Below, one piece after another: positions 13,717 to 63,919 of a stretch of DNA of 64,000 bases. Source of the DNA: Naegleria gruberi (Eukaryota); NCBI GenBank assembly GCA_000004985.1, contig GG738853.1; one strand, written 5' to 3'. The position numbers and the translations under genes were made by a program. Position 1 is the first letter of the stretch. The number at the start of each line of letters is the position of its first letter. The notes under the pieces are model-generated. The model was given only the letters and a program-made list of their open reading frames with translations. It searched no databases and was not told the origin of the DNA.

Positions 13717-13782
13717 CTCCCATGCCGGGAATTGACCCTCCTGGGTGAAAGCCAGGTATCCTAGCCATTGGACTACACGGGA
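13717..13782 (-). pseudogene. Degenerate tRNA-Glu (UUC) copy, 66 nt, with a 6-nt deletion that removes the 5' half of the T-stem and the B box.
   Basis: It is identical to the intact tRNA-Glu at 31313..31384 except that CCGGGT is missing (GAGGGTCAATTCC versus GAGGTCCGGGTTCAATTCC). The 5' flanks are also conserved. Confidence 0.6.
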
Positions 13783-14860: not shown

Positions 14861-16240
14861 TTACATATTTACAGTTTGTTGATTGACTCGTTGTTGAGCT
14901 TGAATTCTTGTTGAGAAACCGTTGAGTCCTCTCTGTTCAACTCTAAATGAAGTGGCACTACAAGCTAATTTCACACTTTCAAATACTTGTTCGCTTGAAA
15001 ATGAAAGTTTGTTGGAAGTATTTGCTGTTGAATTCCTCACAAGTAACTCAGCAACAAAACAAGATAGAAAAGTATCACCAGCTCCAGTTTCGTCCAAAAC
15101 TCTAACTGGTTTGTAGGAAGAGAAATATTTAACAATTGGTGTTGAACTATTTGATCTCAACCTAGGCAAAGACAATTGAATATTTTCTCCTTCGCAAGCA
15201 CAAACACAACCAGATGATCCCATTGTAACTGTTACAATTGGAAATCCATAATTCTTTTGAATATGGTATGCACATTCTTCAGGTGTCATTTCAGAGCTAT
15301 TTGGAATACATTTCTTTGCTTCATCATGATCTAATTTAATGACTGAAATAATCTTACTCAAAGTTTCCAACACTTCCTCTAAATATTCGATAGTATTATG
15401 AGAAACTTGACCACTTTCTGTATCAATTTTTCTCAAATAACCCTGAATATCAGTACAAACTAGAAAATCTGACTGAATTTCTTTAAAAACCTGATTTGTA
15501 AAAGCATTCACAAAGTGATGATCAAACTCTGCAGCTACTGGAACAAAGAGCAATGCTCTAACTTGATGTAATTCTCTAATCATTAAATTAATTGATTCAT
15601 CTTGTTTGAAAATACTTCCTCTATCTCTACAATTCAAGCTTCTACTGTTAGAAGCATTTTCAAGTGAATCAAATGGAGGATATAATAATTCATATTGAGT
15701 TAATTTAGATGATTGATCTTCCTCAACAAGAATCATGTCAAACATTTTCATTCTTTTTAAATGTTTGGCTTCTGACAGATCAGGTTGGAATGTCTTGTGA
15801 AATTGCTTATTAATTATTGGAGATTCACATGCAACCATTGTTATTGAATCATCTTCATTAGCAGCATGTTCCAACCCATTGAAAAACTGACTCAAAATCA
15901 TCACATCATGTTTTCCAATTTTAGTCAATATTTTAGGATGAATTTTAAAATGTTGATTATTAGAATAATACATTTGATTATCAATATTCTTCATATAATG
16001 TTGAAAGGCTAAACATCCAAACATGACTGATCCTCCGAGTGATTTGTTGACTATTTTTCTATATCCTTGATAATGAATTGAATTAGCATCTTCATCGGAA
16101 TTTAATTCTTGTTCAATGTGATGATGTTGTGATGATGAAATACCATTCGGAGTATGTTGGTGATGATCTTTCTCAAAGGTAATAATTGTATCTTGAGTGA
16201 TATTACCAACGAATATTACTTGTTTTTCATTCAACATCAT
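14861..16240 (-). CDS. pfkB-family (ribokinase-like) carbohydrate or nucleoside kinase with a long N-terminal/insert region.
   Basis: The C-terminal region ...VLDETGAGDTFLSCFVAELL carries the pfkB DTxGAGD anion-hole motif, with an upstream GG dipeptide region. It is a single long ORF. Confidence 0.5.
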   Translation of the reverse strand: MMLNEKQVIFVGNITQDTIITFEKDHHQHTPNGISSSQHHHIEQELNSDEDANSIHYQGYRKIVNKSLGGSVMFGCLAFQHYMKNIDNQMYYSNNQHFKIHPKILTKIGKHDVMILSQFFNGLEHAANEDDSITMVACESPIINKQFHKTFQPDLSEAKHLKRMKMFDMILVEEDQSSKLTQYELLYPPFDSLENASNSRSLNCRDRGSIFKQDESINLMIRELHQVRALLFVPVAAEFDHHFVNAFTNQVFKEIQSDFLVCTDIQGYLRKIDTESGQVSHNTIEYLEEVLETLSKIISVIKLDHDEAKKCIPNSSEMTPEECAYHIQKNYGFPIVTVTMGSSGCVCACEGENIQLSLPRLRSNSSTPIVKYFSSYKPVRVLDETGAGDTFLSCFVAELLVRNSTANTSNKLSFSSEQVFESVKLACSATSFRVEQRGLNGFSTRIQAQQRVNQQTVNM

Positions 16241-26127: not shown

Positions 26128-26352
26128 TATTGATTTAATGAGTTTGATTATACTTTGAAAATCCAGTGGAAGTTTCCGTTCAAGAAGATCAAAATTCTTG
26201 ACAGACCTTGTAGCTATTTCAAGTCGAATGTGATCGATACAGATGATAATTATCAATTTTATTAAGGAATGGTTGACAACTCTTTAACAGAAAATAAATA
26301 ATTAGTAAGCTAGGACCTTAGTGCTTCATATTTTTTGATCATCTTTCAAGAA

Positions 26353-26423
26353 GCATTAGTAGTGTAACGGTATCATACCAGCCTTCCAAGCTGGTGACCC
26401 GGGTTCGACTCCCGGCTAATGCA
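26353..26423 (+). tRNA. tRNA-Gly (UCC).
   Basis: The sequence is GCATTAGTAGTGTAACGGTATCATACCAGCCTTCCAAGCTGGTGACCCGGGTTCGACTCCCGGCTAATGCA, 71 nt, with anticodon loop CTTCCAA. Confidence 0.85.
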
Positions 26424-27026
26424 ATTCAATTTTACAGTTGATAGAAATAAGTTTTTCTCTTTTTTCATTAATTAAAACCTTAAACAGCAGTTCAAAATGA
26501 AATTAATAAAGTGCAAATTGAATAAATTGCTATTATTTGATCCTTTGAAAATTGTAACTGCTCAGAACCACTTGTAGATTCCAAAGTTCATTAAATAATT
26601 AACAGAATTGACTTGTTGAGATTTCTTGTTCTCTAACCAACAAGAAATCTCAGCTACTTAATCTTCACAAAAGAAGAATAAGAAGAATAAGAAAATTATG
26701 AAGGAATTTGTGAGAAAAAACATGTAAACAAATGGTTTCATCTATTGACGAGGATGAGTATGAACAATATTCAATCAATTCTAAATTCTAAATATTTAAT
26801 AAATTGTTTAACGAAATGGATTGATTGTCTGTTGATGGTTTTTGGAGTGCATGAGAGGATTTACACCAGCTGAGCTCTATCTATCTCTTGGATTATTAAG
26901 GCGAGGAATCTACTAACCAATACCCTCAGAAATGGTTTCCAACAACTTGTAAAAAGCACTAATCAATCTTCAAGAAACGGTGCCATTCTTAAAGACATGT
27001 TGATATCAGCTAAACTAAAATTGAAT

Positions 27027-27097
27027 TGCATTAGCCGGGAGTCGAACCCGGGTCACCAGCTTGGAAGGCTGGTATGATACCGTTACACTACTAATGC
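27027..27097 (-). tRNA. tRNA-Gly (UCC), an inverted duplicate of 26353..26423.
   Basis: It is the exact reverse complement of the first copy, and the flanks are also mirrored. Confidence 0.85.
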
Positions 27098-27737
27098 TTC
27101 TTGTAAGATGATCAAAAAATATGAACCACCAAGTGGTAGCCATGATAATTTTCATGGAAACAATTATATTTTTTGGTAATTAATTCGATATCCAATACTT
27201 GAACATAGAAATGCGTATGGAACTAATAATTATAATTAATGTTTCAATAAAATATACTTGCTTCCGTATAACATGTCAGATTCCTTTGTTGTCACAGATC
27301 TAACATGTAAAGAAAGATACAAGCAGAGCTGAAAATTACCTTTTTTGTTGTTCTTTCAAAGCGTACAAATGAAATTGAAACTTCATGGGTGAAAAAATTT
27401 TACTGTTTTGCATTCATTCTTTGTTCTAACAGTAAAGATTCCAATAGGTAAATTAACATGTCAATATTGTTGCAATGTGTTGTTATCACCTGGCATAACA
27501 ATATCTGATATTAAATCCATTCTTATGACCATGTTCGTGATGTAAGCTTCAAATGTCATTGTACAAAATTAATCTTGTCATTCCAATTCCAACCATTGAA
27601 CCATATCATGTAAGTTTTAGTTGATTCACAACCTCCCAAAACGAAAGAAATCTCCAAATAATGTTCCATCGCCATTGACAAAAATAGAGCTATTTCGAAG
27701 AGCTTGAAAGATTACTCTCATACAGTTTCGAATAGGA

Positions 27738-29432: not shown

Positions 29433-30250
29433 GAATTATTGAAAAATATAATTGAGGATTCTAAATGAGAGCGAGCTGTTGTTTACAAGATGTGATGTTG
29501 TGAAACTAAAAGAGTAAAGTTTATTGACATTAAGCCAACATTATTATTACATACTTTGTTGATCTACCATCAGTTGCAAATTGTAAAAAATCGTAGTGGA
29601 AAATAGTCTGCAGAAACACAAAAAAAAACGAACGTACGAATATATTGATGAACATTCTTACAACACCATCAGTAACGTGGAGATAAATAATAGTTTAAAC
29701 ACCAAACATAAGAAGGGCAATAAGTAAACAACTGGTGGTCCAAAACACCCATTTTTTTATCTGACTAAAGGGGAGATGGATGCAATTAGTAAAGCTGTGG
29801 ATAGTGAAAAGCAGAAGTTGTATCAACAAACAACATTTTAAAATGTAACAACGATAGAAGGATCCACAAGTTTATCAATCATTAAAAGAAATCATCCAAA
29901 TCTCTGTCCTCCCTTTCTTGTTCTTAATCACTATTTTTTTACAAACGAGTTTAGTCTAGACTGCAAAAACCAGACTGCCAATTGGTCACAAAACATTTAA
30001 CAGTATTCTCTCATGAAATTCGAATACATGAATTAAATGAAATGGTTCAGAAAGATATGAATGAAATGATTGATAATGAGAATACTTTGGAAAGCTGAGT
30101 TGATATTTGAATAGTAAATTGAATCAGTTTTCTATCCAAATTTGGAACCTTACATCCAACTATTTTCAGCTTGTCCCAAATGAAAAACAATTCGAAATGG
30201 TTTAAATTAGCACCATCTGGTTGAACTATCCAATCCAACAAAAACAAAAA

Positions 30251-31222
30251 ATGAAAGCAAATCTAATCTTTTCAATTGCAATTCTACTCTTGCTTGCAAT
30301 CCTCTCAGTTCAAGCAAGTGATAGCTATCAAACTAAACCTCCAGTTGTCGTAGTTGACAAGTATCACAAGCCAAAGGTTTGTAAGAGAAAATGCTTAAAG
30401 CATAAGTGGATTAAGAAGTGTTTGAAACATAAACTCGTTGGTCAAAAGAAGGTCTGTGATCAATATGCAATTGTCGGTGCTGGCAAATGTCTCAAACATA
30501 AGAAATATTCCAAATGTGACAAGTACAGTAAGCCAACAAAGAAGTGTGTCTTGCATGCATACAAGATTGTTGGATGTGCCAAGAAGAAGTACTGGAAAGT
30601 TTGCGATTCTTATGGAACTAAGAAGATTTGCATCAAGAAGGGTTTCAAGAAGTTCTGTGCCAAGTACAAGATTATCAACAAGTGTTTCAAGAAGGGTTTC
30701 AAGAAGGTCTGTAAGAAATTCAAGAAGGTTCCAATCAAGAAGTGTGAAAAGAAGAAGATCTGTGACAAGTACACTGTTGATTCTTACAATAAGAAGGTTG
30801 CCAAATGTAGATATGTTAAAAAGTGCAAGATTGTCTCCTGGGCAAAGAAATGTGCCAAGTATAAGAAGGTTAAATACTGTAAGGAAAGAAAATCTTTCAA
30901 GAAGTGTTGTCTCATTAAGAAGAAATTCTTCTGTGCCAAGCATAAGACCATCAAGTTCTGTAAACACAAGAAGACTCTCTCCAAATGTGTCAAATATAAC
31001 AAGAAGAAGTATTGTGCCAAGTCAATTGTCATTCCACCAAGATGTATCAAGAAGAAGTATTATAAGAAGTGTGTGAAACGTTCAAAGGGAAAGAAGATTT
31101 GTAAGAAATTCAAATTAGTTGGTGGAAAGAAGAAGTGTTGCAAGTCAATTAAGAAGAAGATTTGTATCAAGAGAAAGACATGTAAGAAGCCAACAAAACC
31201 AATCGTCAAACCATCCTTGTAA
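30251..31222 (+). CDS. Secreted, extremely lysine- and cysteine-rich polycationic protein of about 320 aa with Lys near 35% and Cys near 13%. Function is unknown.
   Basis: The signal peptide is MKANLIFSIAILLLLAILSVQA. The mature part is built from degenerate K-x-C modules (CLKHKWIKKCLKHK..., KKVCKKFKKVPIKKCEKKKICDKY...). Codons are strongly biased to AAG/TGT, unlike the neighbouring genes, and local GC is elevated. Confidence 0.6.
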   Translation: MKANLIFSIAILLLLAILSVQASDSYQTKPPVVVVDKYHKPKVCKRKCLKHKWIKKCLKHKLVGQKKVCDQYAIVGAGKCLKHKKYSKCDKYSKPTKKCVLHAYKIVGCAKKKYWKVCDSYGTKKICIKKGFKKFCAKYKIINKCFKKGFKKVCKKFKKVPIKKCEKKKICDKYTVDSYNKKVAKCRYVKKCKIVSWAKKCAKYKKVKYCKERKSFKKCCLIKKKFFCAKHKTIKFCKHKKTLSKCVKYNKKKYCAKSIVIPPRCIKKKYYKKCVKRSKGKKICKKFKLVGGKKKCCKSIKKKICIKRKTCKKPTKPIVKPSL

Positions 31223-43110: not shown

Positions 43111-44299
43111 ATGTCTACTCCGACAATGACAGCAGAGTTTGACGATAGTCATTTAACTACGTTTAAATTTGGACAGTCTGATGCTCATATGCATGACTCA
43201 CTCGATCCTTCCCAATGGAAAATAACAGATTTTGAATTGTTAGAAATTATTGGTACTGGTACTTTTGGTAGTGTTAGATTAGTTAAACATAAACATACAC
43301 AACAATACTATGCTATGAAAATTATTAAAAAGTATGATGTAATTAGAATGAAACAAGTAGAACATATCATTAGTGAGAAGAATATTCTCTCTCAAGTTGA
43401 TCATCCTTTCATTGTTAGACTTTATAGAACATTCCAAGATGAAAATTATTTATTCATGATTATGGAATATGTGTGCGGAGGTGAATTGTTTTCACATTTG
43501 AGACGTGTTGGTAAATTCCCTAATGATGTTGCAAAGTTTTATGCTGCTGAAATTATTTTAGCTATGGAATATCTTCATATGAAGAATATTGTTTATCGTG
43601 ATTTGAAACCAGAAAATGTTTTATTAGATAATGATGGTCATGTAAAAATTACTGATTTTGGTTTTGCTAAGAAGGTTCTTGACCGTACGTGGACTTTATG
43701 TGGTACTCCTGAATATTTAGCGTAGGTTTTTATTAATCTCTTAATATTTAAATTACTCTTTAATCTCTTAATCATAATGATAATACTCTTAATCATTCTG
43801 ATAATCTAAATCATCTAATTATTTTATTATGAATAGTCCTGAAATTATTCAATCTAAGGGTCATGGTAAAGCTGTTGACTGGTGGGCATTAGGTATTCTT
43901 ATTTATGAAATGTTAGTTGGTTATCCACCATTCTTTGATGATTCACCTTTCAAAATTTATGAAAAGATTTTACAAGGAAAGGTTGAATTTCCAAGATTTA
44001 TGGATCCAATGGCTCGTGATTTAATTAAACGTCTCTTAACTACAGATAAGATGAAACGTTTGGGTAATTTGAAAGGAGGTGCTGCTGATATTAAGGAACA
44101 CAAATGGTTTAAGGGTGTTGATTGGGATGAATTATATAATAGACAAATTGCATCTCCAATTCCTGTCAAGATTAGTTTTGCAGGTGATTCTAGATACTTT
44201 GAAACTTATCCGGAATCTCAAGATCATTGTATTCACCACACTGGTACTCCACATCAACAATTATCTGCTGATGTTCAAGCTCTATTTGATGGTTTTTAA
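43111..44299 (+). CDS. AGC-family protein kinase resembling the cAMP-dependent protein kinase catalytic subunit. Exon 1 is 43111..43721 and exon 2 is 43837..44299.
   Basis: It carries [42 protein letters not shown] and GTPEYLA|[19 protein letters not shown], with a C-terminal FxxF (ALFDGF). The intron is GTAGGT...AATAG, exon 1 ends in phase 2, and it interrupts subdomain VIII exactly. Confidence 0.75.
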
Positions 44300-45977
44300 T
44301 TTTTATTAAATGTATGTGAGAATACTGTATATACATCAAATAAAGTTATACATATTGTCACTGTACTTTTACTAAACAAGGTTTTAAACACTTGTTTCCA
44401 TTCATTTGTAAATAATGATTGAATAGTTTTCAAATCAATAACAATGTCAATAAAACACCAAAATCTAATCCATTCACAACCCCAATCTAATTCAATTGGA
44501 ATTCTAATGACTTGTTCCCTTGTTAATGATGGTGGTGAGGTTGGTGATGGTGATTCATCATGATTTTTATCATTATTCATTGTTTCATCTCCATTTGTTG
44601 TAGCAGTAGTAGTTGAATCATTTCCATTCACCGTCATTGTATCATCATTATTTTCATTATAATAAGAATTATCAAATTCAATTGACCATCTAGATCTAAA
44701 ACCAATACTAAATAAATATAATTGTTCATAAAATTTTGAAGTCATGTAATAAAATAGAGTATTATAAAATTTTCCATACGATTGAAATAAACCTCCAACA
44801 GAATGTTCAGCAGTTGCAACTTGTAAATCAATGAAATAACGTAAAATTTTAGAAATTTGAACAAGAATATTTCTACACTTGTTAATTAAATGAATAATTC
44901 TATTCAATTTTGATAAATAATTCATATTATTAGAATTTTTATAATTATTTAAAATTCTCAATTCAGGTAAAAGTTCATTATCTAAAATAGGAGGTGGTGG
45001 TAATTCAACTTTAGAAAAAACTTCTTGTTGATCATAATATTCTTTCCATTTTTGTAAAAATACTTGTTGTGAATTTTCTGAAAAAGGAGTCCATAATAAA
45101 CCTCTTTTTGTTAAAGAAATATTAAAATCATTTAATAAATTTGATCTAATTTGTAAACTATATCCTTTTATAGAAGTAGAAATTCCATAAATTAATTTTT
45201 TAAAATTATGAAAATTCATAATTGATAAACTTAAATATAAATATCTTGCTAAATAAGGAATATAAAATTTTCTTCTTAACATTAATTTAGTAATAAAATC
45301 TTTAATTTTCATTTGATATCCAAAATTAGTAGATAATTTATATTTACCAAAAATAAAACCAATATAATTAATTAAAATTAAATATAATTTTGATTTTTCA
45401 TTAAAAGGTTTATGTAAATGTAATTTAAATATACCATATATATATTTCATATCTAAATATTTAAATAATTTTTTAAAATAATTTTTAAAATAATTTATAT
45501 TTTTTTCATTTAATTTAATTTTATATTTAAATGTTTCTCTATTTGTATAATTTTCATTTCCAATATTAGAATTAAATGTATTATAAAAGGAAGTATATTG
45601 ATTATATTCTTCTTCTTGTTCTCTTTGCATTTCTTCAATATCATCATCTTGATAATAAATATTATTTCCATCTTTGGTAATATTATATATATCATAATGA
45701 TATTCACTTCCAATTGAATATCCTATTTTTTTATCTAATTGAATAAAACTTTATATATTTTATAATAATATTTAAAAATTATATTTAATTAATATTAAAA
45801 TTATATTTAATTAATATTATATTTAAATTAAAAAAAAACATACTTTATAGGTATTTGTAAATTATGAGTAGGATAACATCTCATTGAAATATCAAATGTA
45901 GCATATTCTAAATCCCATGGATGTGTATCTTCATAAGAATCCCAATTTAATGATGCATTTAATTTATATATTTCCAT
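44296..45977 (-). CDS. Hypothetical protein of about 530 aa and unknown family. Exon 1 is 45977..45844 and exon 2 is 45748..44296.
   Basis: Exon 1 encodes MEIYKLNASLNWDSYEDTHPWDLEYATFDISMRCYPTHNLQIPIK, then a GTATGT intron to the acceptor ATAAAG. The rest is Y/K/N-rich with a conserved-looking C-terminus (DWGCEWIRFWCFIDIVIDL). It overlaps the kinase gene 3' end by 4 bp. Confidence 0.4.
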
Positions 45978-46411
45978 TTTTTAATATTATTATTAATATT
46001 AATATATTATTATATTATTATTAGTATGTTATCAATTAGTTATATTGTTGAATTATGTTATTATATTGTTTGTTACATGAATTCCGAGAGTATGATCATT
46101 ATTTGTTGTTGTTGTTGTTGTTGTTGTAAATATAACAATAGAAGTGATGTTATTTTTTTCACGTATTAATGAAGGCTTGTTTCTAATTCAACATTATTAT
46201 CATCATAATAAAGTTTCAATGAATAATTTAAAGAAGAAATAAACATTGGAATTCAAATGTCCAAGTCTAGACTTGAGAATAATTGAATGGCCATTAGAAA
46301 GAATTTTCATGACATTATTCCCGCCATAAATTAAATCTACAGTTGTTTTATTCAAATATTAAAAAAAAAGTGTAAATAATTGAGGAGGGAAATTTTAAGA
46401 AAATAATAATA

Positions 46412-46687
46412 ATGGACAATCAAGTGTTGTATTCAGCAGAACAAATTCAAATTCCCAATGATTTAGGAGAAGTTCTTAAACAATATACAAAGGATGCTAT
46501 CAGAGCCTCACCAGCTGATTTGATCCGATGGAGTGCAAAGTAAGTATTATTATTCCATATAATCAATAATTTAGCCTTCCTTACATGAAACAGTTATTTT
46601 GCAACCAAGACTAATAAACCACTTCCATTCCCTAATGTTCCTCTCACTAACACTACCCCTACTAGTACTACTGCTCAAAGTAAATAA
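46412..46687 (+). CDS. Stand-alone RIIa (PKA regulatory-subunit dimerisation/docking) domain mini-protein of about 73 aa. Exon 1 is 46412..46539 and exon 2 is 46594..46687.
   Basis: IQIPNDLGEVLKQYTKDAIRASPADLIRWSA|NYF fits the RIIa consensus (IPxGLxxLLxxFxxEVLRxQPxDLxxFAAxYF). The intron is GTAAGT...AACAG. Confidence 0.5.
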
Positions 46688-46880
46688 TAGAAATATTAAT
46701 AGCAAAATGACGTTTGTTGCCAACTCACACAATGTAAATATCTCGAAAACATCTTCCTAATAATATATCATTGCCCAACAATGCATATTGTTCAATACAG
46801 CAAATAACTGTAATTGTCTTGCAAAACACGTATTGGTGATTTCATCATTCAATTTGAAAATAAAAATAGCAAACAAAAAA

Positions 46881-48453
46881 ATGAAAATATTTAAACTTTT
46901 AATTGTATTATTATTTTTGATTTCATCAATAGTACTTGTTGCTAATTGTTCAGATGCTACTTCAACTGCTGGTAGTGAAAATATAGAAATTAAAAGTAAA
47001 TTAAATGATCAACAAAATACATATACACAAGATTCATTATTGGGAAATGGTATTTTAACTGGAATTAAAAAGGATGGAACAATTGATAGTATTATTGCTC
47101 AATATAAACAATTAGATAATGAATATATTAAATCTAATAATATTGATAATGGTGATGAAAAGAAGGAAGATATTACAATTGAAAATCCATCAGTAACAAC
47201 TCCTACAACACCTACTACTACACCAACAACAACAACACCACCTATTGATATTACAACACCATCATTACCTAGTACTGTTAATAATCCAATTGATGAAAAA
47301 CCAAAAGATATTGAATTGCCACCATTGGAAGAAAAGAAATCATCAACTGAATCATCAAAACCAACAGTTGATACTCCAACAACAACAACAAAAACAACAA
47401 CAACTACTACTACAACTCCATTACAAGATAAACCTGGAAAGGAAGAAGAATCAGCTGCTGAACAAAAATTGAGAGAAGAAATTAGTAAACTTAAGGCTAA
47501 ACTTGAAGAAATTCAAAAGAAGGAACAAGAAAAGTCAACACCAACAGCACCAATTGAAAAACAAAATAAGCCTATTACAATTGAAAATCCATCACCAGTA
47601 ATAACTCCTACAACAACAACAACTCAACCAAAGGCTGAAAAATCAATTGAAACTACTAAACCATCTACAACTACTACTACTACACCTTCTAAACCATCTA
47701 CAACTACAACTACAACTATTCCATCTAAAATTGATAATAAGAGTAGTACTCCAAGTAAACAGACAACATCATCTACTACTAGTAAAACATCGACAACAAC
47801 AACAACTCCTAATACTACTACTAACAAATCAACAACAACAACTACACCAACAAACAAACAATCATCATCTACTACTAGTAGCAGTTCATCATCAACAAGT
47901 AAATCATCTTCCAAATCAAAGAATAAGTCTACAACAAGTAGTACAACAAGTAAGAATAAGACTAAACCATCAAGTACTTCTCCAACTACCAACAACAAAC
48001 AATCATCATCTGCTAGTACTACTTCTACAACTCCGACAACAAAAACTCCAACAACAACAACAACTCCAAGTAACAAACAATCATACTACCACTGGTTCTA
48101 CTACTACTACTTCCAATACTAATAAACCAAGTAGTACTACTTCTACAACAACAACTCCAAGTAACAAACAACCAATTCAACCTAATAAGAATACAGTTGT
48201 ACGTCCAACACTTAAAGAAGAAGAAGAAAAGAATAATGGAATATCACAAGTATTTATATTTGGATTTGGTATAATTCTATTTTTAGTAATTATTGCAATT
48301 TTCTTTTTATTTATGAGAAAGAGAAAACCAACATTAAAATATGAACCAGTTTCACAATATGAAAATGATTCAATTCAAAATAATGATAATTCCATTGTTG
48401 AATTAGATGATAAACATAAAGTAATTAATGAACCTGTTGATTTGGAAATTTAA
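46881..48453 (+). CDS. Mucin-like Thr/Ser/Pro-rich type I membrane glycoprotein with a signal peptide, a PTT(T)n repeat ectodomain, a TM and a short cytoplasmic tail. It has an apparent frameshift near 48075-48095.
   Basis: ORF 46788..48122 carries the signal peptide MKIFKLLIVLLFLISSIVLVANC and the Thr-rich repeats. ORF 47647..48453 carries more Thr-rich repeats plus the TM (IFIFGFGIILFLVIIAIFFLF) and tail. The two are offset by one base at ...AACAAACAATCATACTACCACTGG.... Confidence 0.45.
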
Positions 48454-48846
48454 ATAAATTCAAATATTATATATTACAATTATTATGTTATGTGTGTGTA
48501 TTTATTATTATTATAAAGTATTATTAATGGAGTGTGTGTATATTACAGTTAATCTAATATCAATGATTCAATCAAATAATTACATAAAAAAATTAACAAT
48601 AAAAAAAATGTCCAATCAACATGATTCCGATTCCAATTCATCATCATCATCATCTAAACAACAATTACATCATGATTCAAATAATTCAAATAATTCAAAT
48701 AATTCAAATAATATAATACAAATAATAATAATTCAAATATAAAAAAAACAAGATTTGAACGTGAAATTGAATCATTAACAAAACAAACGATTGAATTAGA
48801 AAATGTAGAAAATAAATTAAAACAATTATTTCCACAAGAATATGCA

Positions 48847-49299
48847 ATGAATAATTCAAACAAATTTGAAAATGATCAAATATTAAGACATCAAGATCCA
48901 ACTGTTAAATATTTTACTTTAATTGGAGGTTCAATTGGTGCAATTTCAAGTGCTTATTTACTTTATCAACCAATTGATAAATTTGGAAGATTATTTTTTA
49001 AACAATTTACTTCAAATTATAGAATTAGATATTATTTTACAATTCCAACTTTTACTTTTTTAACAATTACTATAAGTGGTATTTTATCAGGTTTATATCC
49101 ATATGGTACACATAGAATTATGAAATTTTTAAATAATCAATTTAATATTGATGTTAATGATAATTTTGATGATTTTTTAATTTCTGGTTTACCTTTAACT
49201 AAAAATGATTTACTTTCTCATTTAAATAAATTTAATAATAATAATAATAATAAATTAATTATTAATAATTTAATTATAATAAAATTAAAATTAAATTAA
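48847..49299 (+). CDS. Small hypothetical membrane protein of 150 aa. It possibly extends 5' into ORF 48485..48742 through an A8 homopolymer.
   Basis: The ORF has two hydrophobic segments. The upstream in-frame sequence (KKTRFEREIESLTKQTIELENVENKLKQLFPQEYA) has no ATG. Confidence 0.25.
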   Translation: MNNSNKFENDQILRHQDPTVKYFTLIGGSIGAISSAYLLYQPIDKFGRLFFKQFTSNYRIRYYFTIPTFTFLTITISGILSGLYPYGTHRIMKFLNNQFNIDVNDNFDDFLISGLPLTKNDLLSHLNKFNNNNNNKLIINNLIIIKLKLN

Positions 49300-49319
49300 T
49301 ATTATGTTTAAAATTATTT

Positions 49320-50462
49320 TTATTTATTTAAATTAATATATTTAACATTTAATTCAATACCATTATTACTTTGATTTCTAAAAATGGAATTAAAATTATC
49401 ATTTTTTAAATTATTTGAATAATCAAATGCAATTCCCATACTTTCAGTACTAAAAGTATAACCAAATTCTAATTGATCATAATCAGTAACTTTACATGAT
49501 AAACATCCAATTTTTCTTTCATTTGTAAAATTAATTAAATTACCATAAATAGAAAATAAAGCTTGTTCCATTGGAATTTCAAATATTTTATCAACTAGAT
49601 AATTTGACATTTGATTTAACATGATATCTTCACCAATTCCACTAAAATTACTTGCAATTTGTATAAAATTATCATTATCACTATCTTGTACATATTTAGT
49701 ATCTGAATAACATCCACTTCCATATATAGAAGCTTCACCAATTCTACCTGAATATTTTAATGATATTCCACCACTACTAACACCTGATGATAATATTCCA
49801 TTATAATATATTATACATCCAACTGTATCATATNNNNNNNNNNNNNNNNNNNNNNNNNNNNNNNNNNNNNNNNNNNNNNNNNNATTATTTAAATTATTTA
49901 TATTATTATTACCATTTATATTATTATTATTAAAATTATAAATAGATGAAAAACATAAACATGCATCACATTCAACTAAACCATTTCTATTTAAATTACT
50001 ACCATATCCAGCATTTGTAAATGGTGAATTTTCTAAAATAGAAATAGCATATGAACATGCATTTAAACATTTTTTTATTTTTTCATTTTCATCATTTTTA
50101 TTTATAAATTTACTATTATTTAAATTATTTAAATTATTAAAATATTGATTAATAGTTTGTTGTATAGATTGTTTCATTAAATTTCTATATAAATTATTAT
50201 TATTAATAGAATGATATCCTGCTCCACAATGAACTGCAATAAAATATACATCATCTTCATCTTCATCATCTTTTAAATCATTATTTAAATCATTATTTAA
50301 ATTATTATATTCTATTATTTCATTATTATTATTATTATCTTGTTGTTGTTGAATAGATAAAGATGATGATGATGAATTATTCCGATCAACATGTTGATGA
50401 TGATTAACTTGTTCACTCATTTTTTTAAAGTTTATAATAGAAAAAAACAAATTGTAACACAC
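49320..50462 (-). CDS. Threonine aspartase 1 (Taspase-1, asparaginase-2 / Ntn-hydrolase family), interrupted by a 50-N scaffold gap.
   Basis: FIAVHCGAGYHS, LENSPFTNAGYGSNLNRNGLVECDA and DTVGCIIY...SSGGISLKYSGRIGEASIYGSGCY match the Taspase-1 core, including the Thr nucleophile of DTVG. Confidence 0.65.
   Translation of the reverse strand: MCYNLFFSIINFKKMSEQVNHHQHVDRNNSSSSSLSIQQQQDNNNNNEIIEYNNLNNDLNNDLKDDEDEDDVYFIAVHCGAGYHSINNNNLYRNLMKQSIQQTINQYFNNLNNLNNSKFINKNDENEKIKKCLNACSYAISILENSPFTNAGYGSNLNRNGLVECDACLCFSSIYNFNNNNINGNNNINNLNNXXXXXXXXXXXXXXXXXYDTVGCIIYYNGILSSGVSSGGISLKYSGRIGEASIYGSGCYSDTKYVQDSDNDNFIQIASNFSGIGEDIMLNQMSNYLVDKIFEIPMEQALFSIYGNLINFTNERKIGCLSCKVTDYDQLEFGYTFSTESMGIAFDYSNNLKNDNFNSIFRNQSNNGIELNVKYINLNK
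49834..49883. other. Assembly gap of 50 N.
   Basis: A run of n characters sits inside the Taspase-1 coding region. Confidence 0.99.
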
Positions 50463-50582
50463 AACTATTTCAAATTTAATTTTATTACATTTTCAATACA
50501 TACAATACTTTTAATACATATGATTCAGATTACAAAATATATAAATAAATATATAAACACATAATAATAAATATATAAAATA

Positions 50583-51836
50583 TTATTGTAAAATATTATA
50601 CATTAATAATTCTAAAATATTTGTAATTAAAATAACATGTTTACAACTTTGTATATTTTTAGAATCACATACTAATAATGGTAATTGATAATTAATAGCT
50701 AATTCAATAGAATTATTTAATAAATTTAAATGATTATTATTTAAATATTTAATTAAATTATTTTCATTTTCATTATTAAAAGTATTTAATAACATTATTT
50801 CCATTACATCTAATTGTTCTTCATCATCTTTAAATTTACTACCAATTAATGAATTTGATTTTACTTTTAATCCATTTATAGATTCATTTGTATCTAATTT
50901 CCATATTGGTATATTTAATAAATTATTTAAATTTTCATTAAATAAATAAATTACATAAGTTTTACCTGAATATAAATTTGCTGAAAATATTGATTTTCTT
51001 GAATGTGGTGATTTTATACCACCATGATCTTGAAATGATATTTGTATATATTTACTATTATTATTATTATTATTATTACTATTTATAGAATTATTTAAAT
51101 TATTAAATTCAATTAAATTATTATTATTATTAATAAATAATTCAAATGATTTCATTACAATTCTAAAATCAATAGTTTGATCATATTTATTAAAATCTTG
51201 ATCAATTTTATCACAAATATTATTAACAAATTTAGATTTACCTGTTTTAGAATTACCTTTTACATGAATTCTAAAAAATAAATTAGTTAAATCATCTGAT
51301 CTATTATTAAATTGTGTTTTTGTAATTTCTTTAAATTTAAAATAATATTTTGTAATTGTTTGACATAAAATTCTTTCATTTTTTAAATTATTTAATTTTA
51401 AATTTTTAATTTTATCAGAATTAAATGGAAAATATAATATTCCAATTTCATTTTTTAATAAATATTTCCATATTTGATCACATGGTGTTTTTATTTCATT
51501 ATTTAAATTATTATTTAAAATAGATTGACCACAAATATATTCATACCAATCTTTATTTAACATTGATAATAATGTTAATTCATAAGTATTTAAAAATGAT
51601 ATTATTTCAAATGTCATTTCATGTGTTAAATCAAAATTATTATTAAATATAAATGAAATTGTTTTAATTGATGTACTTGTTGTTGTAGTTGTTGTACTTG
51701 TAGTTGTAGTAGTAGTTGTATTATTATCATTATTATCATTGTTATCATTGTTAATAGTAGTTGTATTATTATCAATTAAATGATGATCGGAAGGATCTTC
51801 TTGTTGATCAATAATAATATGATTATTGTTGATCAT
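50583..51836 (-). CDS. F-box-like domain protein with a P-loop small-GTPase-like central region.
   Basis: The N-terminal part has poly-N/T runs and then an F-box-like segment (MTFEIISFLNTYELTLLSMLNKDWYEYI). Later there is a G1-like motif (GNSKTGKS), a DxxG-like motif (QDHGG) and a beta-strand pattern. The gene is very AT-rich. Confidence 0.4.
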   Translation of the reverse strand: MINNNHIIIDQQEDPSDHHLIDNNTTTINNDNNDNNDNNTTTTTTTSTTTTTTSTSIKTISFIFNNNFDLTHEMTFEIISFLNTYELTLLSMLNKDWYEYICGQSILNNNLNNEIKTPCDQIWKYLLKNEIGILYFPFNSDKIKNLKLNNLKNERILCQTITKYYFKFKEITKTQFNNRSDDLTNLFFRIHVKGNSKTGKSKFVNNICDKIDQDFNKYDQTIDFRIVMKSFELFINNNNNLIEFNNLNNSINSNNNNNNNSKYIQISFQDHGGIKSPHSRKSIFSANLYSGKTYVIYLFNENLNNLLNIPIWKLDTNESINGLKVKSNSLIGSKFKDDEEQLDVMEIMLLNTFNNENENNLIKYLNNNHLNLLNNSIELAINYQLPLLVCDSKNIQSCKHVILITNILELLMYNILQ

Positions 51837-53308
51837 TTTTTTTTAATTTGATAGAGAAATGTGTGGATTGTATGAGTAGAAGAAATTGTACAAAGAATAA
51901 TAAGAACATGGAACAATTACATGTTCAGTGTTCAACATATCCTCAAAAGCATTTAAAGGAAAACAGCTGTTTTGTGACATCAATTGCTGGTGGTTTCTTG
52001 CATGGATTCGTATATAAGTGGCTCTTATGAGTCCTCAATCCATGATTCTGCTTATTGTTCCAACTGAACCAAAGAATAAGGATGTTAATCATTCAGTTGT
52101 AAATTACTGAAAAGTTTTCTGAATTGGAAGAACATTAAAAGGTCAAACATTTAGAAGATCAAATTCAAATTGAGAAAAAGATAAGAACAAGAAGGATAGA
52201 CAAGAGGAAGCCAGACATAAGAAGGATGTAGAAGACAGAAAGAAGAAGGAAGAGGAAGATCGTTTGAGAAAAGCCCAATTAGAAGAGGATGATTAGAAGA
52301 TGAAAGAAAGAGAAAAGCCTAAATTGAAGAAGAACGTAGGAGAAAGGCAGATTTGGAAGAGGAAAACAAGAAGAGCAACCTGCTCAAGAGGAAGAGGAAA
52401 AGAAAAAGGTTAAATGAGTGAGGTCATGAAAGATCTCCTTTCCAAGTCTGCAACAGAAGTACTCGTTATCAATCATTTGAAGGAATTAACGTCGATTACA
52501 AGGCCTCATTCATCATCATTTTTTGGAAAATACTTTAATAGCTTGGTTTTGTAAACTTTGGAGAGGATCGCAATTTTGGCGTCGATTTGATGTAAATGGA
52601 ACCACAAGGATTGAGCACAAATATTCGTTATGGTAAACAAAATCATTATGTTATCAAACAAACTAGCCGTTCCATTTTAAAATGTAGATTTCGTCTAGAT
52701 GGAACCACCAAAGGTGAGTCAACACGTGCCGATTTCACAACATATTACAATCGTTCCAAGCTGTTGGCCAATCGACAAATTAGCACATAATTTCATAATA
52801 GCGCAATATGATTATTTCACCTACCATTTGGACTACTCATAATTTATCCTTATAATAGAGTTACTTATCTTAACCACTTTGATTTTGTATTCTACTCTTC
52901 TGTTAAAAATATTTGATGATCCTTGGATTCTGTTACTGGTAGTACACTTACACTAAATACTTACGTTGTCTGTCCTGCATGTCTGTTCTGCGACCATTCT
53001 ATGAAGTTTCAAAATGAATTGTGTAAATAATATGCCAATGTCAGAAAAGCAAAGCAACAATTCGATATGTAAAGTTTAAAACAAAATTGAACGCATATGT
53101 ATTCAGAGATATGGTATCTTTAACAATCTTCAGTAGTTATTTTGTTTTACACACTTACACAATTTTGTAGATTCAGTAATGCATTTCTACTCACAAATGA
53201 GAACTGTACTGATTAACGAAGCTGACCCTCCAAACCAATAAAGAAAAATTGAATATTTTGTTTATTTTATTCCGAAAGTTCTAAGTCAATGGTTTTCCAT
53301 TTGGCCAA

Positions 53309-54415
53309 TCAGGCATCTTCATCTTCTTTATATTGAAAGTCTTTGTTGTGATCTTTTAATTGGTTCATTTCACTCAAGTATTTTGTTCCTTCATCACCAA
53401 TATAGTTGTTGTTAATATAAAGATACATTATTTCTTTCAATTCACTTATGTATTTAACTCCTTCATCTCTAATCTTATTGTAGGAAATATCAAGATGGGT
53501 CAATTGTTTCAATCCACTCAAATATTTAATTCCTTCATCACCAATGTCATTACAAGAAATATCAAGATCCATTAATTGTTTCAATTCACATAAATATTTA
53601 GCTCCCTCATCACCAATTTGATTGTTAGAAATATTAAGAAGTATTAAATGTTTTAATTCACTTAAATATTTTGCTCCTTCATTTCCAATTTGATTGTTAT
53701 TAATATAAAGATCAGTTAATTGTTTCAATTCTCCAATATATTTAGATCCTTCATCACCTATACGATTATCTTGAATATTAAGATAGGTCAATTGTTTTAA
53801 TTCACTTAAATATTTTGCTCCTTCATCATCAATATTATTTTTATCAATAATAAGAATGGTCAATTGTTTCAATTCACTTATATATTTTGATCCTTTAGCA
53901 CCAATATTATTTTTATCAATAATAAGAAAAGTTAATTGTTTCAATTCACTTAAATATTTAGCTCCATATTCAGAAATACCATTATTACGAATATCAAGAG
54001 TGGTCAATTGTTTCAATTCACTTATAAATCTAACACCCTCATCACCTATATAACTATCATAAATATGAAGTTTTTTTAATTGTTTCAATTCACTTAAATG
54101 ATTTAATGCTTCTCCTTCTTTAATTCTAATTTTAAGTTTTGTTAATGATTTCATCATTTTTAATTTTTTAACAGTATTAATAGTGCTGGCAGTAGTACTA
54201 ACATGAAGATTACAACATGTTGATAAAATAACATTCAACCACTGTTTAGATACCAATGTACAATTCAAGATAATAAAATTAAAATCATCAAAGAAGGAAA
54301 TTATTTCATATATTATATCATTATGAAATTTATAATCATTGTGTGACAAGTTCTCCATCCTTGTTTGAACCATGTTAGTTGAATGTTGTGTACACAATGT
54401 TGGGAGTTTTTCCAT
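53309..54415 (-). CDS. F-box / leucine-rich-repeat protein (RNI-like LRRs).
   Basis: An N-terminal F-box-like segment (IIYEIISFFDDFNFIILNCTLVSKQWLNVIL) is followed by about 12 tandem 24-aa repeats of the form ELKQLTxLxIxxNxIGDEGAKYLS. The repeats are also highly similar at the DNA level. Confidence 0.6.
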   Translation of the reverse strand: MEKLPTLCTQHSTNMVQTRMENLSHNDYKFHNDIIYEIISFFDDFNFIILNCTLVSKQWLNVILSTCCNLHVSTTASTINTVKKLKMMKSLTKLKIRIKEGEALNHLSELKQLKKLHIYDSYIGDEGVRFISELKQLTTLDIRNNGISEYGAKYLSELKQLTFLIIDKNNIGAKGSKYISELKQLTILIIDKNNIDDEGAKYLSELKQLTYLNIQDNRIGDEGSKYIGELKQLTDLYINNNQIGNEGAKYLSELKHLILLNISNNQIGDEGAKYLCELKQLMDLDISCNDIGDEGIKYLSGLKQLTHLDISYNKIRDEGVKYISELKEIMYLYINNNYIGDEGTKYLSEMNQLKDHNKDFQYKEDEDA

Positions 54416-55396
54416 TTTTTTTTAATAATGTTGTGATTGATCAACCAAGTTTATTATTATATATGGTCAACTCAACATTCAAATTAAAGATCAATTACAC
54501 AATATCAATGACTATAATTTAGATATTTAAATATGCTACATTCTATTTATTCAAGTTAAATTATCATCATGATGGTTTTAATGTTATTATTCGGATCTGT
54601 TTAAATTTTTGAATTAATTGAAAAATCCAAACTTTAGAACTCAATCAATGGGGAAAAAGAGAATGTCTAGTTTCTCCATATCATATTCCAATGTACCAAT
54701 GTATAATTTGATTCATTGAAAAGTGAAAAGTTTCTCTGCCAAATATTATGGAAATTGGAAGTGATTGTTTATATTTATTACTTATTTTAATAGTTAGGCC
54801 TTCTTTGAGCATTTGATAAGAGAGCACTCTCCAAGTTGCCAATTCCATTTTATTAATTTAATGTAATTGTTACAATATAAAGATTTGATTTTTTAAATTT
54901 ATACTATTATATAATAGTATTTTAATGCACTTATGCATGACATGATATGAAATTATTATTTCAACAAATCACTTTACATATTTAGTGCATGCATATTAAT
55001 CAAGTATTAATAAGGACCCTTAGATATTTTTATTAATAATTGATCATCACTCTATTATTCCTAAAAAGCTCTCATCATTAAAAATTAACATTTATATTTT
55101 ATCACATCTTAAACTTCTTAATATCCAAGAATGACTTAATAGTTAGGACTATTATTTAACTGAACCTTATCGATAGGCCCAAATAAGTACTAAATATCAA
55201 ACAAAATGAATAACGCGAAATTTTCTCGCTTTTTAAATTGATTGGTTGTTTTAATCACAGATTACAATGATTTTCACAACGCAAGCACTCCGTTATCATA
55301 TCATTCGACAAAGGTCACCTTTTGAAAAATCGCTTTACGGACTCTAATTTGGAGCGTTCACATTCCACTCTACACCTCAACAATAATATAAAAAAA

Positions 55397-57232
55397 ATGT
55401 TCAAATCAATTGCTCAACCAATTATCAAGAAGGCTAATCAAACAACACCAATTAAATCTGCTGTTGTTCAATCTAGATTCCTCAGCAAGGTTGTTAAAGA
55501 TGCCAAGACTGCTGTTCAAGATATTCCTGATGGTGCTACACTGTATGTATTAATATAATTTATTAATTTATTAATTTTTATAAATATATATTAATATTAA
55601 TATGATGATGATTGATCAATATGATGATGATATTACTATTATATTACAATCTATTATCTAAACACTCCCATAACCACTAAACTATAATCTAAAATCACAC
55701 CAATCTACTATTTAAACTACTTATCTACACTTAATCACACCAATCTAAATCACCAATCTACAATCTACAATCTACACTAAATCTACAATCTAAACACAAT
55801 GTAAAAACTCTCTTAATATTATTTAAATAGTTGTGTTGGTGGATTTGGTTTATCTGGTACACCACAAAAATTGATTGAAGCCTTGAGAGATTTGGGTAGT
55901 AAAAATTTAACAATTGTTTCAAATAATTGTGGTGTTGATGATTGGGGATTAGGATTATTATTATCTAATGGACAAATTAAAAGAATGGTTTCATCCTATG
56001 TTGGTGAAAATGCAACATTTGAAAAATTATATTTAGGAGGACATTTAGAAGTTGAATTACTTCCACAAGGTACATTAGCTGAAAAGTTAAGAGCTGGTGG
56101 TGCTGGTATTCCTGCATTCTTTACACCTACTGCTGTTGGTACTGTTATTCAAGAAGGTGGTTTTGCTATTAAATTTAAACCAAATTCAAAGGAAATTGAA
56201 ATTGCTTCTAAACCAAGAGAAGTTAGAGAATTTAATGGTAGAAAATATTTAATGGAAGAATGGATTAGAGGTGATTTTGCTTTAATTAAGGGATGGAAAG
56301 CTGATGAACATGGTAATGTTGTTTTTAGAAGAACTGCTAGAAATTTCAATCCAATGTGTGGTCAAGCTGGTAAAATTTGTATTGTTGAAGTTGAAGAATT
56401 AGTTAAACCAGGTGAAATTGATCCAGATCATGTTCATTTACCAGGTGTTTTTGTTGATAGAATTTATTTAGCTGAACCATATGAAAAGAGAATTGAAAAG
56501 AGAACTCTTTCTAAACCTACTGATGCTAATTCATCATCATCATCTTCTACTTCTTCAAATGATCCATCAAAATGGGATACACGTGAACGTATTGTTAGAA
56601 GAACTGCATTAGAATTCCAAGATGGAATGTATGTTAATTTAGGTATTGGTATTCCAACACTTGCATCCAATCATTTACCAAAAGGTGTTACCATTACTTT
56701 ACAATCTGAAAATGGTATTTTAGGTATGGGACCATATCCAACACCTGGTAATGAACATGCTGATTTGATTAATGCAGGTAAAGAAACAATTACAACATTA
56801 CCTGGATCATCAACATTTTCTTCATCTGATTCATTTGGTATTATTAGAGGTGGTCATATTGATTTGACTGTTTTGGGTGCTTTACAAGTATCTGAAAGTG
56901 GTGATTTAGCCAATTGGATTATTCCAGGTAAAATGGTTAAAGGTATGGGTGGTGCTATGGATTTAGTTTCATCTGGTTCACGTGTTGTTGTTACAATGGA
57001 ACATACTGCTAAGGGTAATTCTCCAAAGATTTTGAAATCATGTTCTTTACCTTTAACTGGTAAACAAGTTGTTAATAGAATTATTACTGAATTGGCTGTA
57101 TTTGATGTTACTCCACAAGGTTTAGTTTTAATTGAACATTTCCCTGGTGTTACTGTTGATGAAATTAAATCAAAGACTGAAGCTAACTTTATTGTTTCTG
57201 ATCAATTGAAGGAAATGCAATTTGTTCAATAA
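55397..57232 (+). CDS. oxct: Succinyl-CoA:3-ketoacid coenzyme A transferase (SCOT/OXCT, CoA-transferase family I). Exon 1 is 55397..55542 and exon 2 is 55831..57232.
   Basis: Exon 1 encodes a mitochondrial presequence ending DIPDGATL. A 288-nt GTATGT intron follows. Exon 2 encodes [15 protein letters not shown]...[12 protein letters not shown]...GGAMDLV, collinear with mammalian OXCT1. Confidence 0.85.
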
Positions 57233-57313: not shown

Positions 57314-58501
57314 TTATTGAATTGGAATGTATTCTTCTTCATGTTGTTGAGGTGGATGTTGTAGTGATGGAATAATTAGTGTTGAAATTGACTTGTTATT
57401 TTTATAATAATAAAATTGAATAGCAATAATAAAACTAAATAATAAAGTAAAAATACTTCCTAAAATGTAAGGAAATGTTGAAACTACATCCATTGTATTT
57501 GTAATATAAAATAATATTATACTTATTAAATACAATACTTGTGTTAATGTATCAATAATAAACATTAATAACTATAAATATATTTAATAATTAATCATAA
57601 TTAAATTAATTTTGTTAAAAATAATTAAATAAATAAATTTAAAACAAATTATTTCAAAACTTACAGATAAACCTTCAACACTCTTCTTTTTATAATTTTT
57701 AATAATTTGTGGAATGTATGCAATAATATAACAAGTACATGATATATATGAAATTATAATTCCAATTATATTTGCAATTTCATTATCATTATTAATAATT
57801 GAAGTATTACATAATTTTACAGTACTGCTACCATCACCACTACTACTACTAATAAATATATTAAAAAATAATAATAAAACAAATAAAGAAATAATCCAAT
57901 GTGAATTTAATTGATTATATTTTAATTGATTAAATTTTTTTAAAATAAAATTAAAAAATAAAATAAATAATTTTTCATAATAACAATATTGAGTAATAAT
58001 TAAAATATCCATAAAAACATAATAAATAGCTAAATATAATTGAGTAGGTAATTGATTTGTTAAAATACAACCAATTAAATTAGTAACATCACCAATCATC
58101 CAAATAAGGAATAAATAAATTGATAAACCTTTTGCAGATTTAAATACAAAATTTTTAATAACTTGTGGAAATAAACTAATCATACTTGTTAATATACTTA
58201 ATAATCCTAATATATAACTTGTTATTTCATTTGTTTCATAAAAACATTCTCTAAATATTAATGCAATAAATTCATTATAATGATTATTTCCTTTTTTAGT
58301 AGGTAAACATTGACATAAAAATGATGAAAATAATATTTCTTGATTATTTTCATTATTATTATTTAATAAAAATGTTTCATTATTAAATAATATAGGTAAT
58401 GATGATGATGATGATGAATAAAATGATAAAAATTGTTTACTATTCATTTCAGTGCATTTTTTTAAAAAAATCTTTACAATAAAATTATTTTTTATTATCA
58501 T
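57314..58501 (-). CDS. PQ-loop repeat (7-TM, cystinosin/Ypq-like) membrane protein. Exon 1 is 58501..57665 and exon 2 is 57571..57314.
   Basis: It has two PQ motifs (LFPQVIKNFVFKSAKGLS and YIPQIIKNYKKKSVEGLS). A GTAAGT intron starts at 57664 and the TATAG acceptor ends at 57572, joining ...VEGLS|LLMFIIDTLTQ.... Seven hydrophobic helices can be counted. Confidence 0.55.
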
Positions 58502-59004
58502 AATATTATCATCAATATTATCATTAACATATTATTATTATTAGATATAATATTATTATTATTTTCAATATTAATAGTAAAATCATCATGATAATAAGGA
58601 CCAAATAAATCTCTAAATAAAGCATATGAACATAATTTAGTAGTATAATATGTTTTTAAATAAAAATTAGATAATGGTAATGATATTTGATAAAATAAAA
58701 ATCCAAATGTTAATCCAGTTGATATTTGTGTTAGAGTATTAATATATTTATTAGATATCTTTTTAAATGATTTTTGAAATATAAATAAAGATGAAAATGT
58801 TCCGATTATTGAAAATGGATATTTAATTAATGTTGAATATCCATCTTGTGGTATTTTAATCATTAATGATGTTAAATAGGCTCTTTTTGTATATTTATAT
58901 TTACTATTATTATTATTATTATTATTATTGGATGATGATGATGGTATTGTTGTTGTTATTGATGATGATTTGAGTTGTTGTTGTGTAGTTGAATTATTTT
59001 CCAT
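58498..59004 (-). CDS. Hypothetical small membrane protein of 168 aa. Its TGA stop overlaps the ATG of the PQ-loop ORF (ATGA), so the two may be one gene joined by an unrecognised intron or frameshift.
   Basis: It has an S/N-rich N-terminus and two hydrophobic segments, and sits in a different frame from the downstream ORF. Confidence 0.3.
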   Translation of the reverse strand: MENNSTTQQQLKSSSITTTIPSSSSNNNNNNNNSKYKYTKRAYLTSLMIKIPQDGYSTLIKYPFSIIGTFSSLFIFQKSFKKISNKYINTLTQISTGLTFGFLFYQISLPLSNFYLKTYYTTKLCSYALFRDLFGPYYHDDFTINIENNNNIISNNNNMLMIILMIIL

Positions 59005-59059
59005 TTTTTATTATTGAATTATGAAAAGATAAATTGATTGTGTGTGTTTATTATTTATA

Positions 59060-62635: not shown

Positions 62636-63919
62636 ATGATCAAAATATTAAATCCTCTATTACTATGCCTATTAATATTATTATTTCTAATTAATAATAT
62701 TAAATGTGCATCATTTACAACAAGTTATTCAATGAAAACATGTTCATTATCAAATTCATTATTATCCAATTCTAATAGTGATATATTTACATCTACATCT
62801 ACTACATCATCTGGATGTTCCTCATCATCAACATTTCAAATTGCCATTAAATTTGGAGATGAAGGAGTTCCACGTGATTTAAAACTCTCACTCTCAAAAG
62901 ATGATAAAATTCAAAATAGTTTAGATTCAACTGATTTTTATTCATTATCTAATGATATTATTATTAAAATAGAAAGAACTGATTTAAAAGTATCATATCC
63001 ATTAACTTTTATTAAAACATTAAAAAATTCATATGAAACTATTGAAACAAGTGTTAAAGATTGTAATAATTTAAATAATAATAATATGGATGAATATTCT
63101 AAATGTTGTGGACCCTATTATTATAATGATAATTCAAATTCAAATTTAAATTCAAATAAATATTATAATATTAGAAAATTAAATTATAATACTACCAATT
63201 ATAATCAATATGAAATTGGAAAATCACAATTACAATATTATATTCAATTTACAATACAACAATTAGATTTAAAATATAGTTTAATGTTATCAAATAATCA
63301 AAAATCATTAATTTTTAAAGGAATTAAAATTTCAATTGAAAATGATTTTTTAAAATTAACAAATTTAGATTTTTATTATTTAACACATTATTATATTATA
63401 CCTGAAAATCAATTAGATGGTTTTGTAATTCCTAAAAATTTAATTAATAAAGATATAAATAAAATTGGAATTACTAAAGAAATTTATAAAAATAATATTA
63501 ATTGTAATGATGAATTAGGTGATATAGTTACCATATTAGGAAATAATAATATATATGATCAATTTTATAGTTTTAGATCTAAATTTTTATTAAATTTAAT
63601 TGATGATTGTTATTTTAAAGATAAAAATCAAAATTTAATTAATTTTAATTGTGTAAAAACTATTAAAAATACAATTTTAATTAATTTACCATTTGGAGAT
63701 TCAAATTCATTTTCATTATTAAAATTAAAATCAAATCCAAATATAGTATCAAAAGGTTCTTTTAAAATTGATAATTATTTAATTTCTATTTATTTAGATA
63801 TTTTTAATAATATTGAATCTGATGGTTTAGTTGAAATTACTTTAATTGATTGTTGTATTTTACAAAATAATAATTTTATTTGTAATGTATGTTTTTTTAT
63901 TAATATATTTTTAATTTAA
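62636..63919 (+). CDS. Secreted or type I hypothetical protein with a signal peptide (MIKILNPLLLCLLILLFLINNIKCA). It is N/I/K-rich with no recognisable domain.
   Basis: It is a 427-aa ORF whose hydrophobic N-terminus is followed by a polar, Cys-containing sequence. Confidence 0.35.
   Translation: MIKILNPLLLCLLILLFLINNIKCASFTTSYSMKTCSLSNSLLSNSNSDIFTSTSTTSSGCSSSSTFQIAIKFGDEGVPRDLKLSLSKDDKIQNSLDSTDFYSLSNDIIIKIERTDLKVSYPLTFIKTLKNSYETIETSVKDCNNLNNNNMDEYSKCCGPYYYNDNSNSNLNSNKYYNIRKLNYNTTNYNQYEIGKSQLQYYIQFTIQQLDLKYSLMLSNNQKSLIFKGIKISIENDFLKLTNLDFYYLTHYYIIPENQLDGFVIPKNLINKDINKIGITKEIYKNNINCNDELGDIVTILGNNNIYDQFYSFRSKFLLNLIDDCYFKDKNQNLINFNCVKTIKNTILINLPFGDSNSFSLLKLKSNPNIVSKGSFKIDNYLISIYLDIFNNIESDGLVEITLIDCCILQNNNFICNVCFFINIFLI

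Follow-up and report, generated by a model that had tools for sequence, protein, structure and literature searches.

An ORF-free segment between two minus-strand genes of Naegleria gruberi, possibly the relic of a decayed protein-coding gene

The locus and its neighbours

Naegleria gruberi is a heterolobosean amoeboflagellate. In the 64-kb stretch of its DNA analysed here (the window), 1,472 nt at positions 51837–53308 lie between two minus-strand ORFs, and no frame there is open for more than 64 codons. The segment, longer than any other part of the window without an identified gene, is bounded on one side by the ATG of the first ORF, and on the other by the stop codon of the second. The segment and its neighbours are as follows:

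50583–51836, minus strand: left neighbour, a 417-aa ORF of GC content 0.16 with a sub-threshold F-box match; its start codon abuts the segment.
51837–53308, no strand assigned: the ORF-free segment, of GC content 0.334; its longest stop-to-stop ORF has 64 codons.
53309–54415, minus strand: right neighbour, a 368-aa leucine-rich-repeat (LRR) ORF with a sub-threshold N-terminal F-box match; its stop codon abuts the segment.

The initial annotation of this DNA, made from the letters alone, placed the segment between two minus-strand F-box genes. Both ORFs are present, and on that strand, but the F-box label corresponds to Pfam matches that fall below threshold: the F-box family (PF00646) scores 19.3 bits in the left gene and 18.3 bits in the right, where the gathering score is 20.5, and searches of the N-terminal regions alone give E values of about 1e-3 to 2e-3. 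The right neighbour is a clear LRR protein (LRR_6, E = 4e-41), organized in units of 24 aa and containing nine 72-nt units in its DNA (repeat family D1). An identical sequence context, TTAAAAAAAAATG, directly precedes the start codons of both minus-strand neighbours (51836–51848 and 54415–54427, in the minus-strand reading).

Dictyostelids, which the initial annotation took as its frame of reference because of the AT-rich ORFs nearby, are the wrong one: the ORF at 14861–16240 (minus strand) is 100% identical to N. gruberi NAEGRDRAFT_57217 (XP_002680588.1), and the window therefore belongs to that organism. The reference annotation of N. gruberi is, however, poor around this locus. JGI gene model P0003 (334 aa) maps to 49.3–51.8 kb, starts at the ATG of the left ORF (51836), and fuses the start and the end of that F-box-like ORF with an Asparaginase_2 gene, across a gap of 50 Ns at 49834–49883. 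The LRR ORF on the other side is intact, and has no identical protein among 5.8 billion; its best matches are N. gruberi paralogues, 38–68% identical. The locus serves as a reminder that the reference is unreliable here, and that the segment has no annotated model is for this reason weak evidence when taken alone. What counts is the absence of any open frame.

Base composition

The segment was originally described as compositionally anomalous, with a GC content clearly higher than even that of coding regions. Its GC is 0.334 overall, 0.34–0.37 in 300-nt windows across 51950–53000, and 0.35 in the core. The flanking ORFs have GC contents of 0.160 (left) and 0.251 (right), and against these two unusually AT-rich neighbours the description is correct. 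Against the rest of the window it is not: most of the long ORFs have GC contents of 0.29–0.37, and most 1-kb bins lie between 0.27 and 0.37. The segment is thus at the local norm, and it is the flanking genes that are the outliers. The contrast arises because those neighbours are so rich in A and T, and it took on the look of an anomaly because Naegleria sequence was being judged by dictyostelid standards.

What is truly odd about the composition of this neighbourhood is not the GC-normal segment, but a set of extremely AT-rich genes. ORFs of GC 0.16–0.20, with runs of Asn or Thr, occur at 44299–51842, 57587–59007 and 62636–63916, and conserved families are among them (Asparaginase_2 at 49320–50462 and PQ-loop at 57584–58501). 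They sit beside ORFs of GC 0.30–0.37, such as the CoA-transferase gene at 55397–57232, and the switch from one composition to the other is abrupt and occurs at gene boundaries. Elsewhere, a strong A+C skew marks 47000–48200 (GC skew reaches -0.68 and AT skew +0.49). This stretch lies inside two long plus-strand ORFs, 46788–48122 and 47647–48453, both without a Pfam match. Long ORFs overlap on opposite strands around the same 47000–48200 stretch, and also at 30206–31219.

Compared with other spacers, rather than with genes, the segment does stand out. Apart from the spacer that carries a cluster of 5S rRNA and tRNA genes, it has the highest GC content of any spacer in the window, the ordinary ones ranging from 0.21 to 0.30. 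A second measure, independent of reading frame, is the fraction of bases that fall in A/T-only runs of at least 8 nt. The median of this fraction is 0.09 in coding ORFs and 0.23 in the 12 ordinary ORF-free spacers of the window (range 0.125–0.38); in the segment it is 0.06, and over positions 51866–52781 it is only 0.02. The segment is unlike an ordinary Naegleria spacer, and in composition it resembles coding DNA.

Reading frames, codon usage and homologues

If this is coding DNA, it is not intact. That no long ORF survives in the segment, as the initial annotation stated, is borne out by the maximum of 64 codons, but this length is not above chance: in Markov-1 simulations the mean is 86 codons, and 94% of the simulated sequences contain an ORF at least as long as this one. 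‘Stop-riddled’, another of the terms applied to the segment, is accurate, and at the same time describes no more than the normal look of non-coding DNA. A spliced gene is no better hidden. A dynamic-programming search for ATG-to-stop frames, in which GT..AG introns of 45–400 nt were allowed, recovers the CoA-transferase gene as a control (288-nt intron, 516 codons, 314 bits). In the segment its best results are 59–94 codons with 27–29 bits on the plus strand and 2 bits on the minus strand, within the range of other spacers. The segment holds no intact gene, spliced or unspliced. Several features can nevertheless be set out within it:

51866–52781, plus strand: putative protein-coding relic, with coding-like codon usage running through about nine frame changes and two stop codons.
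52140–52420, plus strand: purine-rich tract, 78% A+G, GC 0.37, with a GC skew of 0.49 and an AT skew of 0.53.
52251–52363, plus strand: three copies of the peptide unit EE[DE]RxRKAx[LI]EE[DE]; the DNA copies (repeat family D3) start at 52251, 52295 and 52325.
52596–52790, plus strand: the longest ORF (64 aa) and best non-repetitive coding-like patch, with a window score of 0.32 against a real-gene mean of 0.37.
52782–53308, no strand assigned: remainder of the segment, in which all frames are negative for coding signal; GC 0.306, A/T-run fraction 0.11, no unusual folding.

The last of these, the remainder, presumably corresponds to the LRR gene's 3′ untranslated region and terminator.

Codon usage was scored with a log-odds table trained on 18–19 long ORFs of the window, on which scale real genes average 0.37 bits per codon. 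Patches of the plus strand are at that level, in frame +1 over 52137–52350 (0.31–0.45) and in frame 0 around 52617–52737 (0.32), and a weaker patch is found in frame +2 over 51837–52020 (0.08–0.16). A local path search that tolerates frameshifts and stops, charging 7 bits for each change of frame or stop codon, follows the plus strand from 51866 to 52781 through nine frame changes and two stops and returns a score of 33.0 bits, a figure with some overfitting built in, since the search selects the best path; the minus strand scores 6.6. Markov-1 sequences subjected to the same search score 10.6 ± 2.8, with a maximum of 20.4, and shuffles of the segment in blocks of 30, 60 or 120 nt score 10–11 ± 3, none of 200 reaching 33. 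With the purine tract deleted, the segment scores 19.2 and its shuffles 8.1 ± 2, at most one in 200 of which reaches 19.2.

The result depends on the price of a frameshift. At penalties of 4–5 bits the segment scores 54–65, against maxima of 28–33 among 28 control spacer strands, and at every penalty up to 7 bits it exceeds all 28. At penalties of 10 bits or more, it scores 23.8—this being the purine-tract ORF alone—against a control maximum of 27.8, and is no outlier. For calibration, a real gene burdened with nine indels and 20–30% random substitutions scores 27–45. At penalties of up to 7 bits, then, host-like codon usage is found on one strand, broken by frameshifts and stops, as expected of a pseudogene.

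The purine tract calls for separate treatment. At 281 nt, it is the sole 280-nt stretch in the 64 kb with at least 72% purine or pyrimidine, and it is built from imperfect repeats at spacings of 24, 30 and 44 nt (families D3, D7 and D13), with periods of 24 and 10. It translates as a peptide rich in Glu, Lys and Arg (E/K/R) in all three plus-strand frames. The segment had been read as broken charged-repeat coding sequence in several frames, and the three peptides quoted in support are present exactly as they were written; the charge in more than one frame, however, is an effect of the purine tract.

Within the tract, the three unit copies read EEDRLRKAQLEED, EDERKRKA*IEEE and EEERRRKADLEEE. 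The spacing of 44 nt from copy 1 to copy 2 is not divisible by 3, which puts copy 1 in another frame than the other two. In copy 2 a TAA stands at the position where the others have CAA and GAT. Residues of the unit are kept by different codons—Arg by CGT, AGA and CGT, Ala by GCC, GCC and GCA, Leu/Ile by TTA, ATT and TTG—and five of the eight differences between copies 1 and 3 fall at third positions, an excess that is not significant. The pattern fits a charged repeat that was once translated and has since undergone one indel and one C-to-T change, and is suggestive in this respect, not significant. Another apparent duplication, RFDVNGTT and RFRLDGTT, 103 nt apart, was not used as evidence; the similarity spans only about 40 nt.

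No parent or orthologue that can be aligned to the segment came to light in Pfam, among the 5.8 billion proteins, or among the ORFs of the window. Searched in six frames, the segment matches no Pfam family even at E values up to 1, and matches none of the 5.8 billion proteins, the N. gruberi proteome included, at E ≤ 0.01; the similarity to transposon or other proteins that the initial annotation had in mind is thus absent from both. The 64-aa ORF, compared with 1.84 billion representative proteins, has a single match (E = 2e-4, 36% identity over 36 residues). The protein matched is bacterial and contains 11 Big_7 repeats, and the match was rejected as due to chance, inflated by those repeats. 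A 307-aa reconstruction, made by joining the frames, finds only noise from its charged region in Pfam and only noise in a search of PDB sequences, and is not similar to any other ORF of the window. Nor was a second copy of the segment, a point that the initial annotation proposed to check, found by blastn or tblastx within the 64 kb. Phage and plasmid collections do not match it, and two scans of JGI metagenomes, with 24-mers and 26-mers, gave no match for the locus. Exact-protein look-ups, made in search of independent copies, likewise yielded no Naegleria gene positions. The literature searched contains general statements on N. gruberi repeats, and nothing specific to this locus.

One database sequence does match another part of the window. 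Contig k127_445462 of ENA ERZ929261 (run ERR1078381, project PRJEB11402) is 99.6% identical to positions 10242–12935, 11 of the 2,694 nt being mismatched, and does not extend to the segment. The contig is labelled as metagenome, and the sample accordingly contained DNA of a close N. gruberi strain.

What the segment may once have been

Taken together, the choice lies between a gene that has died and DNA that never was one, and a few less promising readings besides. The best reading, in our view an even bet, is that the segment is a decayed protein-coding gene of the plus strand, of no recognizable family. This gene would have been divergent from the F-box-like gene and convergent with the LRR gene, and would have included a charged, E/K/R-rich repeat region, probably a coiled coil or a single helix. 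Its reading frame would then have been destroyed by indels and nonsense mutations. The segment is unlikely to be translated now, and its DNA probably serves only as a spacer, in which the left gene has its promoter and the right gene its 3′ end. On this account, we infer, the codon signal reflects the former gene, the parent of which has no recognizable family, and the present role is that of spacer only.

The evidence for a dead gene is positive, but statistical, and comes from this window alone. Several things count against it. Nine frame changes in 0.9 kb amount to heavy decay, and yet the codon bias has been retained, together with a GC content of 0.35. No homologue was found in any frame, and the path score ceases to be an outlier at the higher penalties. 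The segment resembles a unitary, or orphan, pseudogene of the kind left as a gene relic in eukaryotic spacers: as in these, the codon signal is confined to one strand and broken up by frameshifts and premature stops, an intact ORF is lacking, and the composition is still coding-like. It differs in that the usual proof, an alignment to a functional relative, is missing, and statistics from the window stand in its place.

The repeated unit can be compared in the same way with the charged, E/K/R-rich regions of known proteins. An alternating acidic and basic pattern is typical of charged repeat regions of the coiled-coil or single alpha-helix type, and the segment has such a unit, three times over. 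Its copies, however, lie in two frames, one of them contains a stop, and no significant match to a protein or Pfam family accompanies them.

The alternative that survives best is that the segment is an ordinary spacer that was never a gene, made up of promoter and 5′ sequence belonging to the F-box-like gene, a 3′ untranslated region and terminator that belong to the LRR gene, and a low-complexity, purine-rich tract; it may be transcribed as unstructured non-coding RNA. Such a reading accords with the length of the longest ORF, which is not above chance, with the empty homology searches, and with the unexceptional coding score at high frameshift penalties. A purine tract gives an E/K/R reading whatever the frame, and other spacers of about 1–2.6 kb exist in the window. 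What speaks against it is a strand-specific codon signal that, at penalties up to 7, rises above every shuffle and control, even when the purine tract is left out; an A/T-run content, 0.02–0.06, lower than in any of the 12 ordinary spacers; and a GC content that no other spacer without RNA genes equals. We regard an ordinary spacer as possible, if somewhat unlikely.

A live gene might also look broken, either from indel errors in a draft Sanger assembly or as a null allele in this strain. Codon usage and GC content have stayed coding-like, the 50-N scaffold gap is 2 kb away, and the reference annotation is, as noted, unreliable here, with one fused model and one LRR ORF that matches no annotated protein. 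Against this, the adjoining ORFs, of 417 and 368 codons, are both intact, which suggests that local sequence quality is good. About nine indels and two stops in 0.9 kb are also too many: the error rate expected of a Sanger assembly of multi-fold coverage is far lower. This makes an error or a null allele quite improbable.

A degraded fragment of a mobile element was the reading preferred initially, with a decayed gene as second choice. We would reverse that order, since codon usage lends support to the decayed gene and nothing comparable supports the element. The segment shares with degraded transposable elements its broken, coding-like frames and a composition that differs from that of its immediate neighbours, and N. 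gruberi does contain some transposons, most of its repeats being unclassified (PMC12344493). It does not share their other features. In six frames, at E values up to 1, there is no transposase, reverse transcriptase, integrase or other domain; the protein, phage and plasmid searches and those for further copies within the window found nothing, as described above; long direct terminal repeats are absent from the segment; and its GC content equals the norm of the host. The best pair of inverted termini, flanked by TA at 51871–51901 and 52811–52841, was rejected: it matches at 22 of 31 positions, which is the level of chance (shuffles average 22.4, with a maximum of 24). The odds of a mobile element appear to us very long.

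Equally slim is the chance that the locus is functional in some unconventional way, either as a purine-rich long non-coding RNA, derived from a dead gene and transcribed in divergent orientation to the F-box-like gene, or, less plausibly, as a recoded gene that depends on frameshifting. Were one of these true, it would fit with a GC content that has not drifted down to the 0.21–0.30 of ordinary spacers.

A structured non-coding RNA gene, to which one might be led by the segment being GC-normal and ORF-free like the 5S/tRNA cluster spacer (13077–14863), can be set aside as barely credible: nothing matches at Rfam gathering thresholds, the only two matches at E values up to 1 are at noise level (19–21 bits against gathering scores of 50–90), and 38 overlapping 150-nt windows, folded on both strands, have z-scores of just -1.5 to +1.4.

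The segment in itself matters little; at best, it adds one more instance of a gene dying in a protist genome densely packed with genes.

Small RNA genes are present elsewhere in the window. The 1.8-kb cluster spacer contains a 5S rRNA gene at 13991–14109 (minus strand, 105 bits), a tRNA-Pro gene at 13488–13559 (plus strand) and a tRNA-Met gene at 14211–14277 (minus strand), along with a weaker tRNA-like match at 13717–13782 (minus strand, 38.9 bits, by Rfam only). Farther along, the two 118-nt arms of an inverted duplication, complementary at 97%, occupy 26317–26434 and 27016–27133, with 581 nt between them, and each arm carries a tRNA-Gly(TCC) gene.
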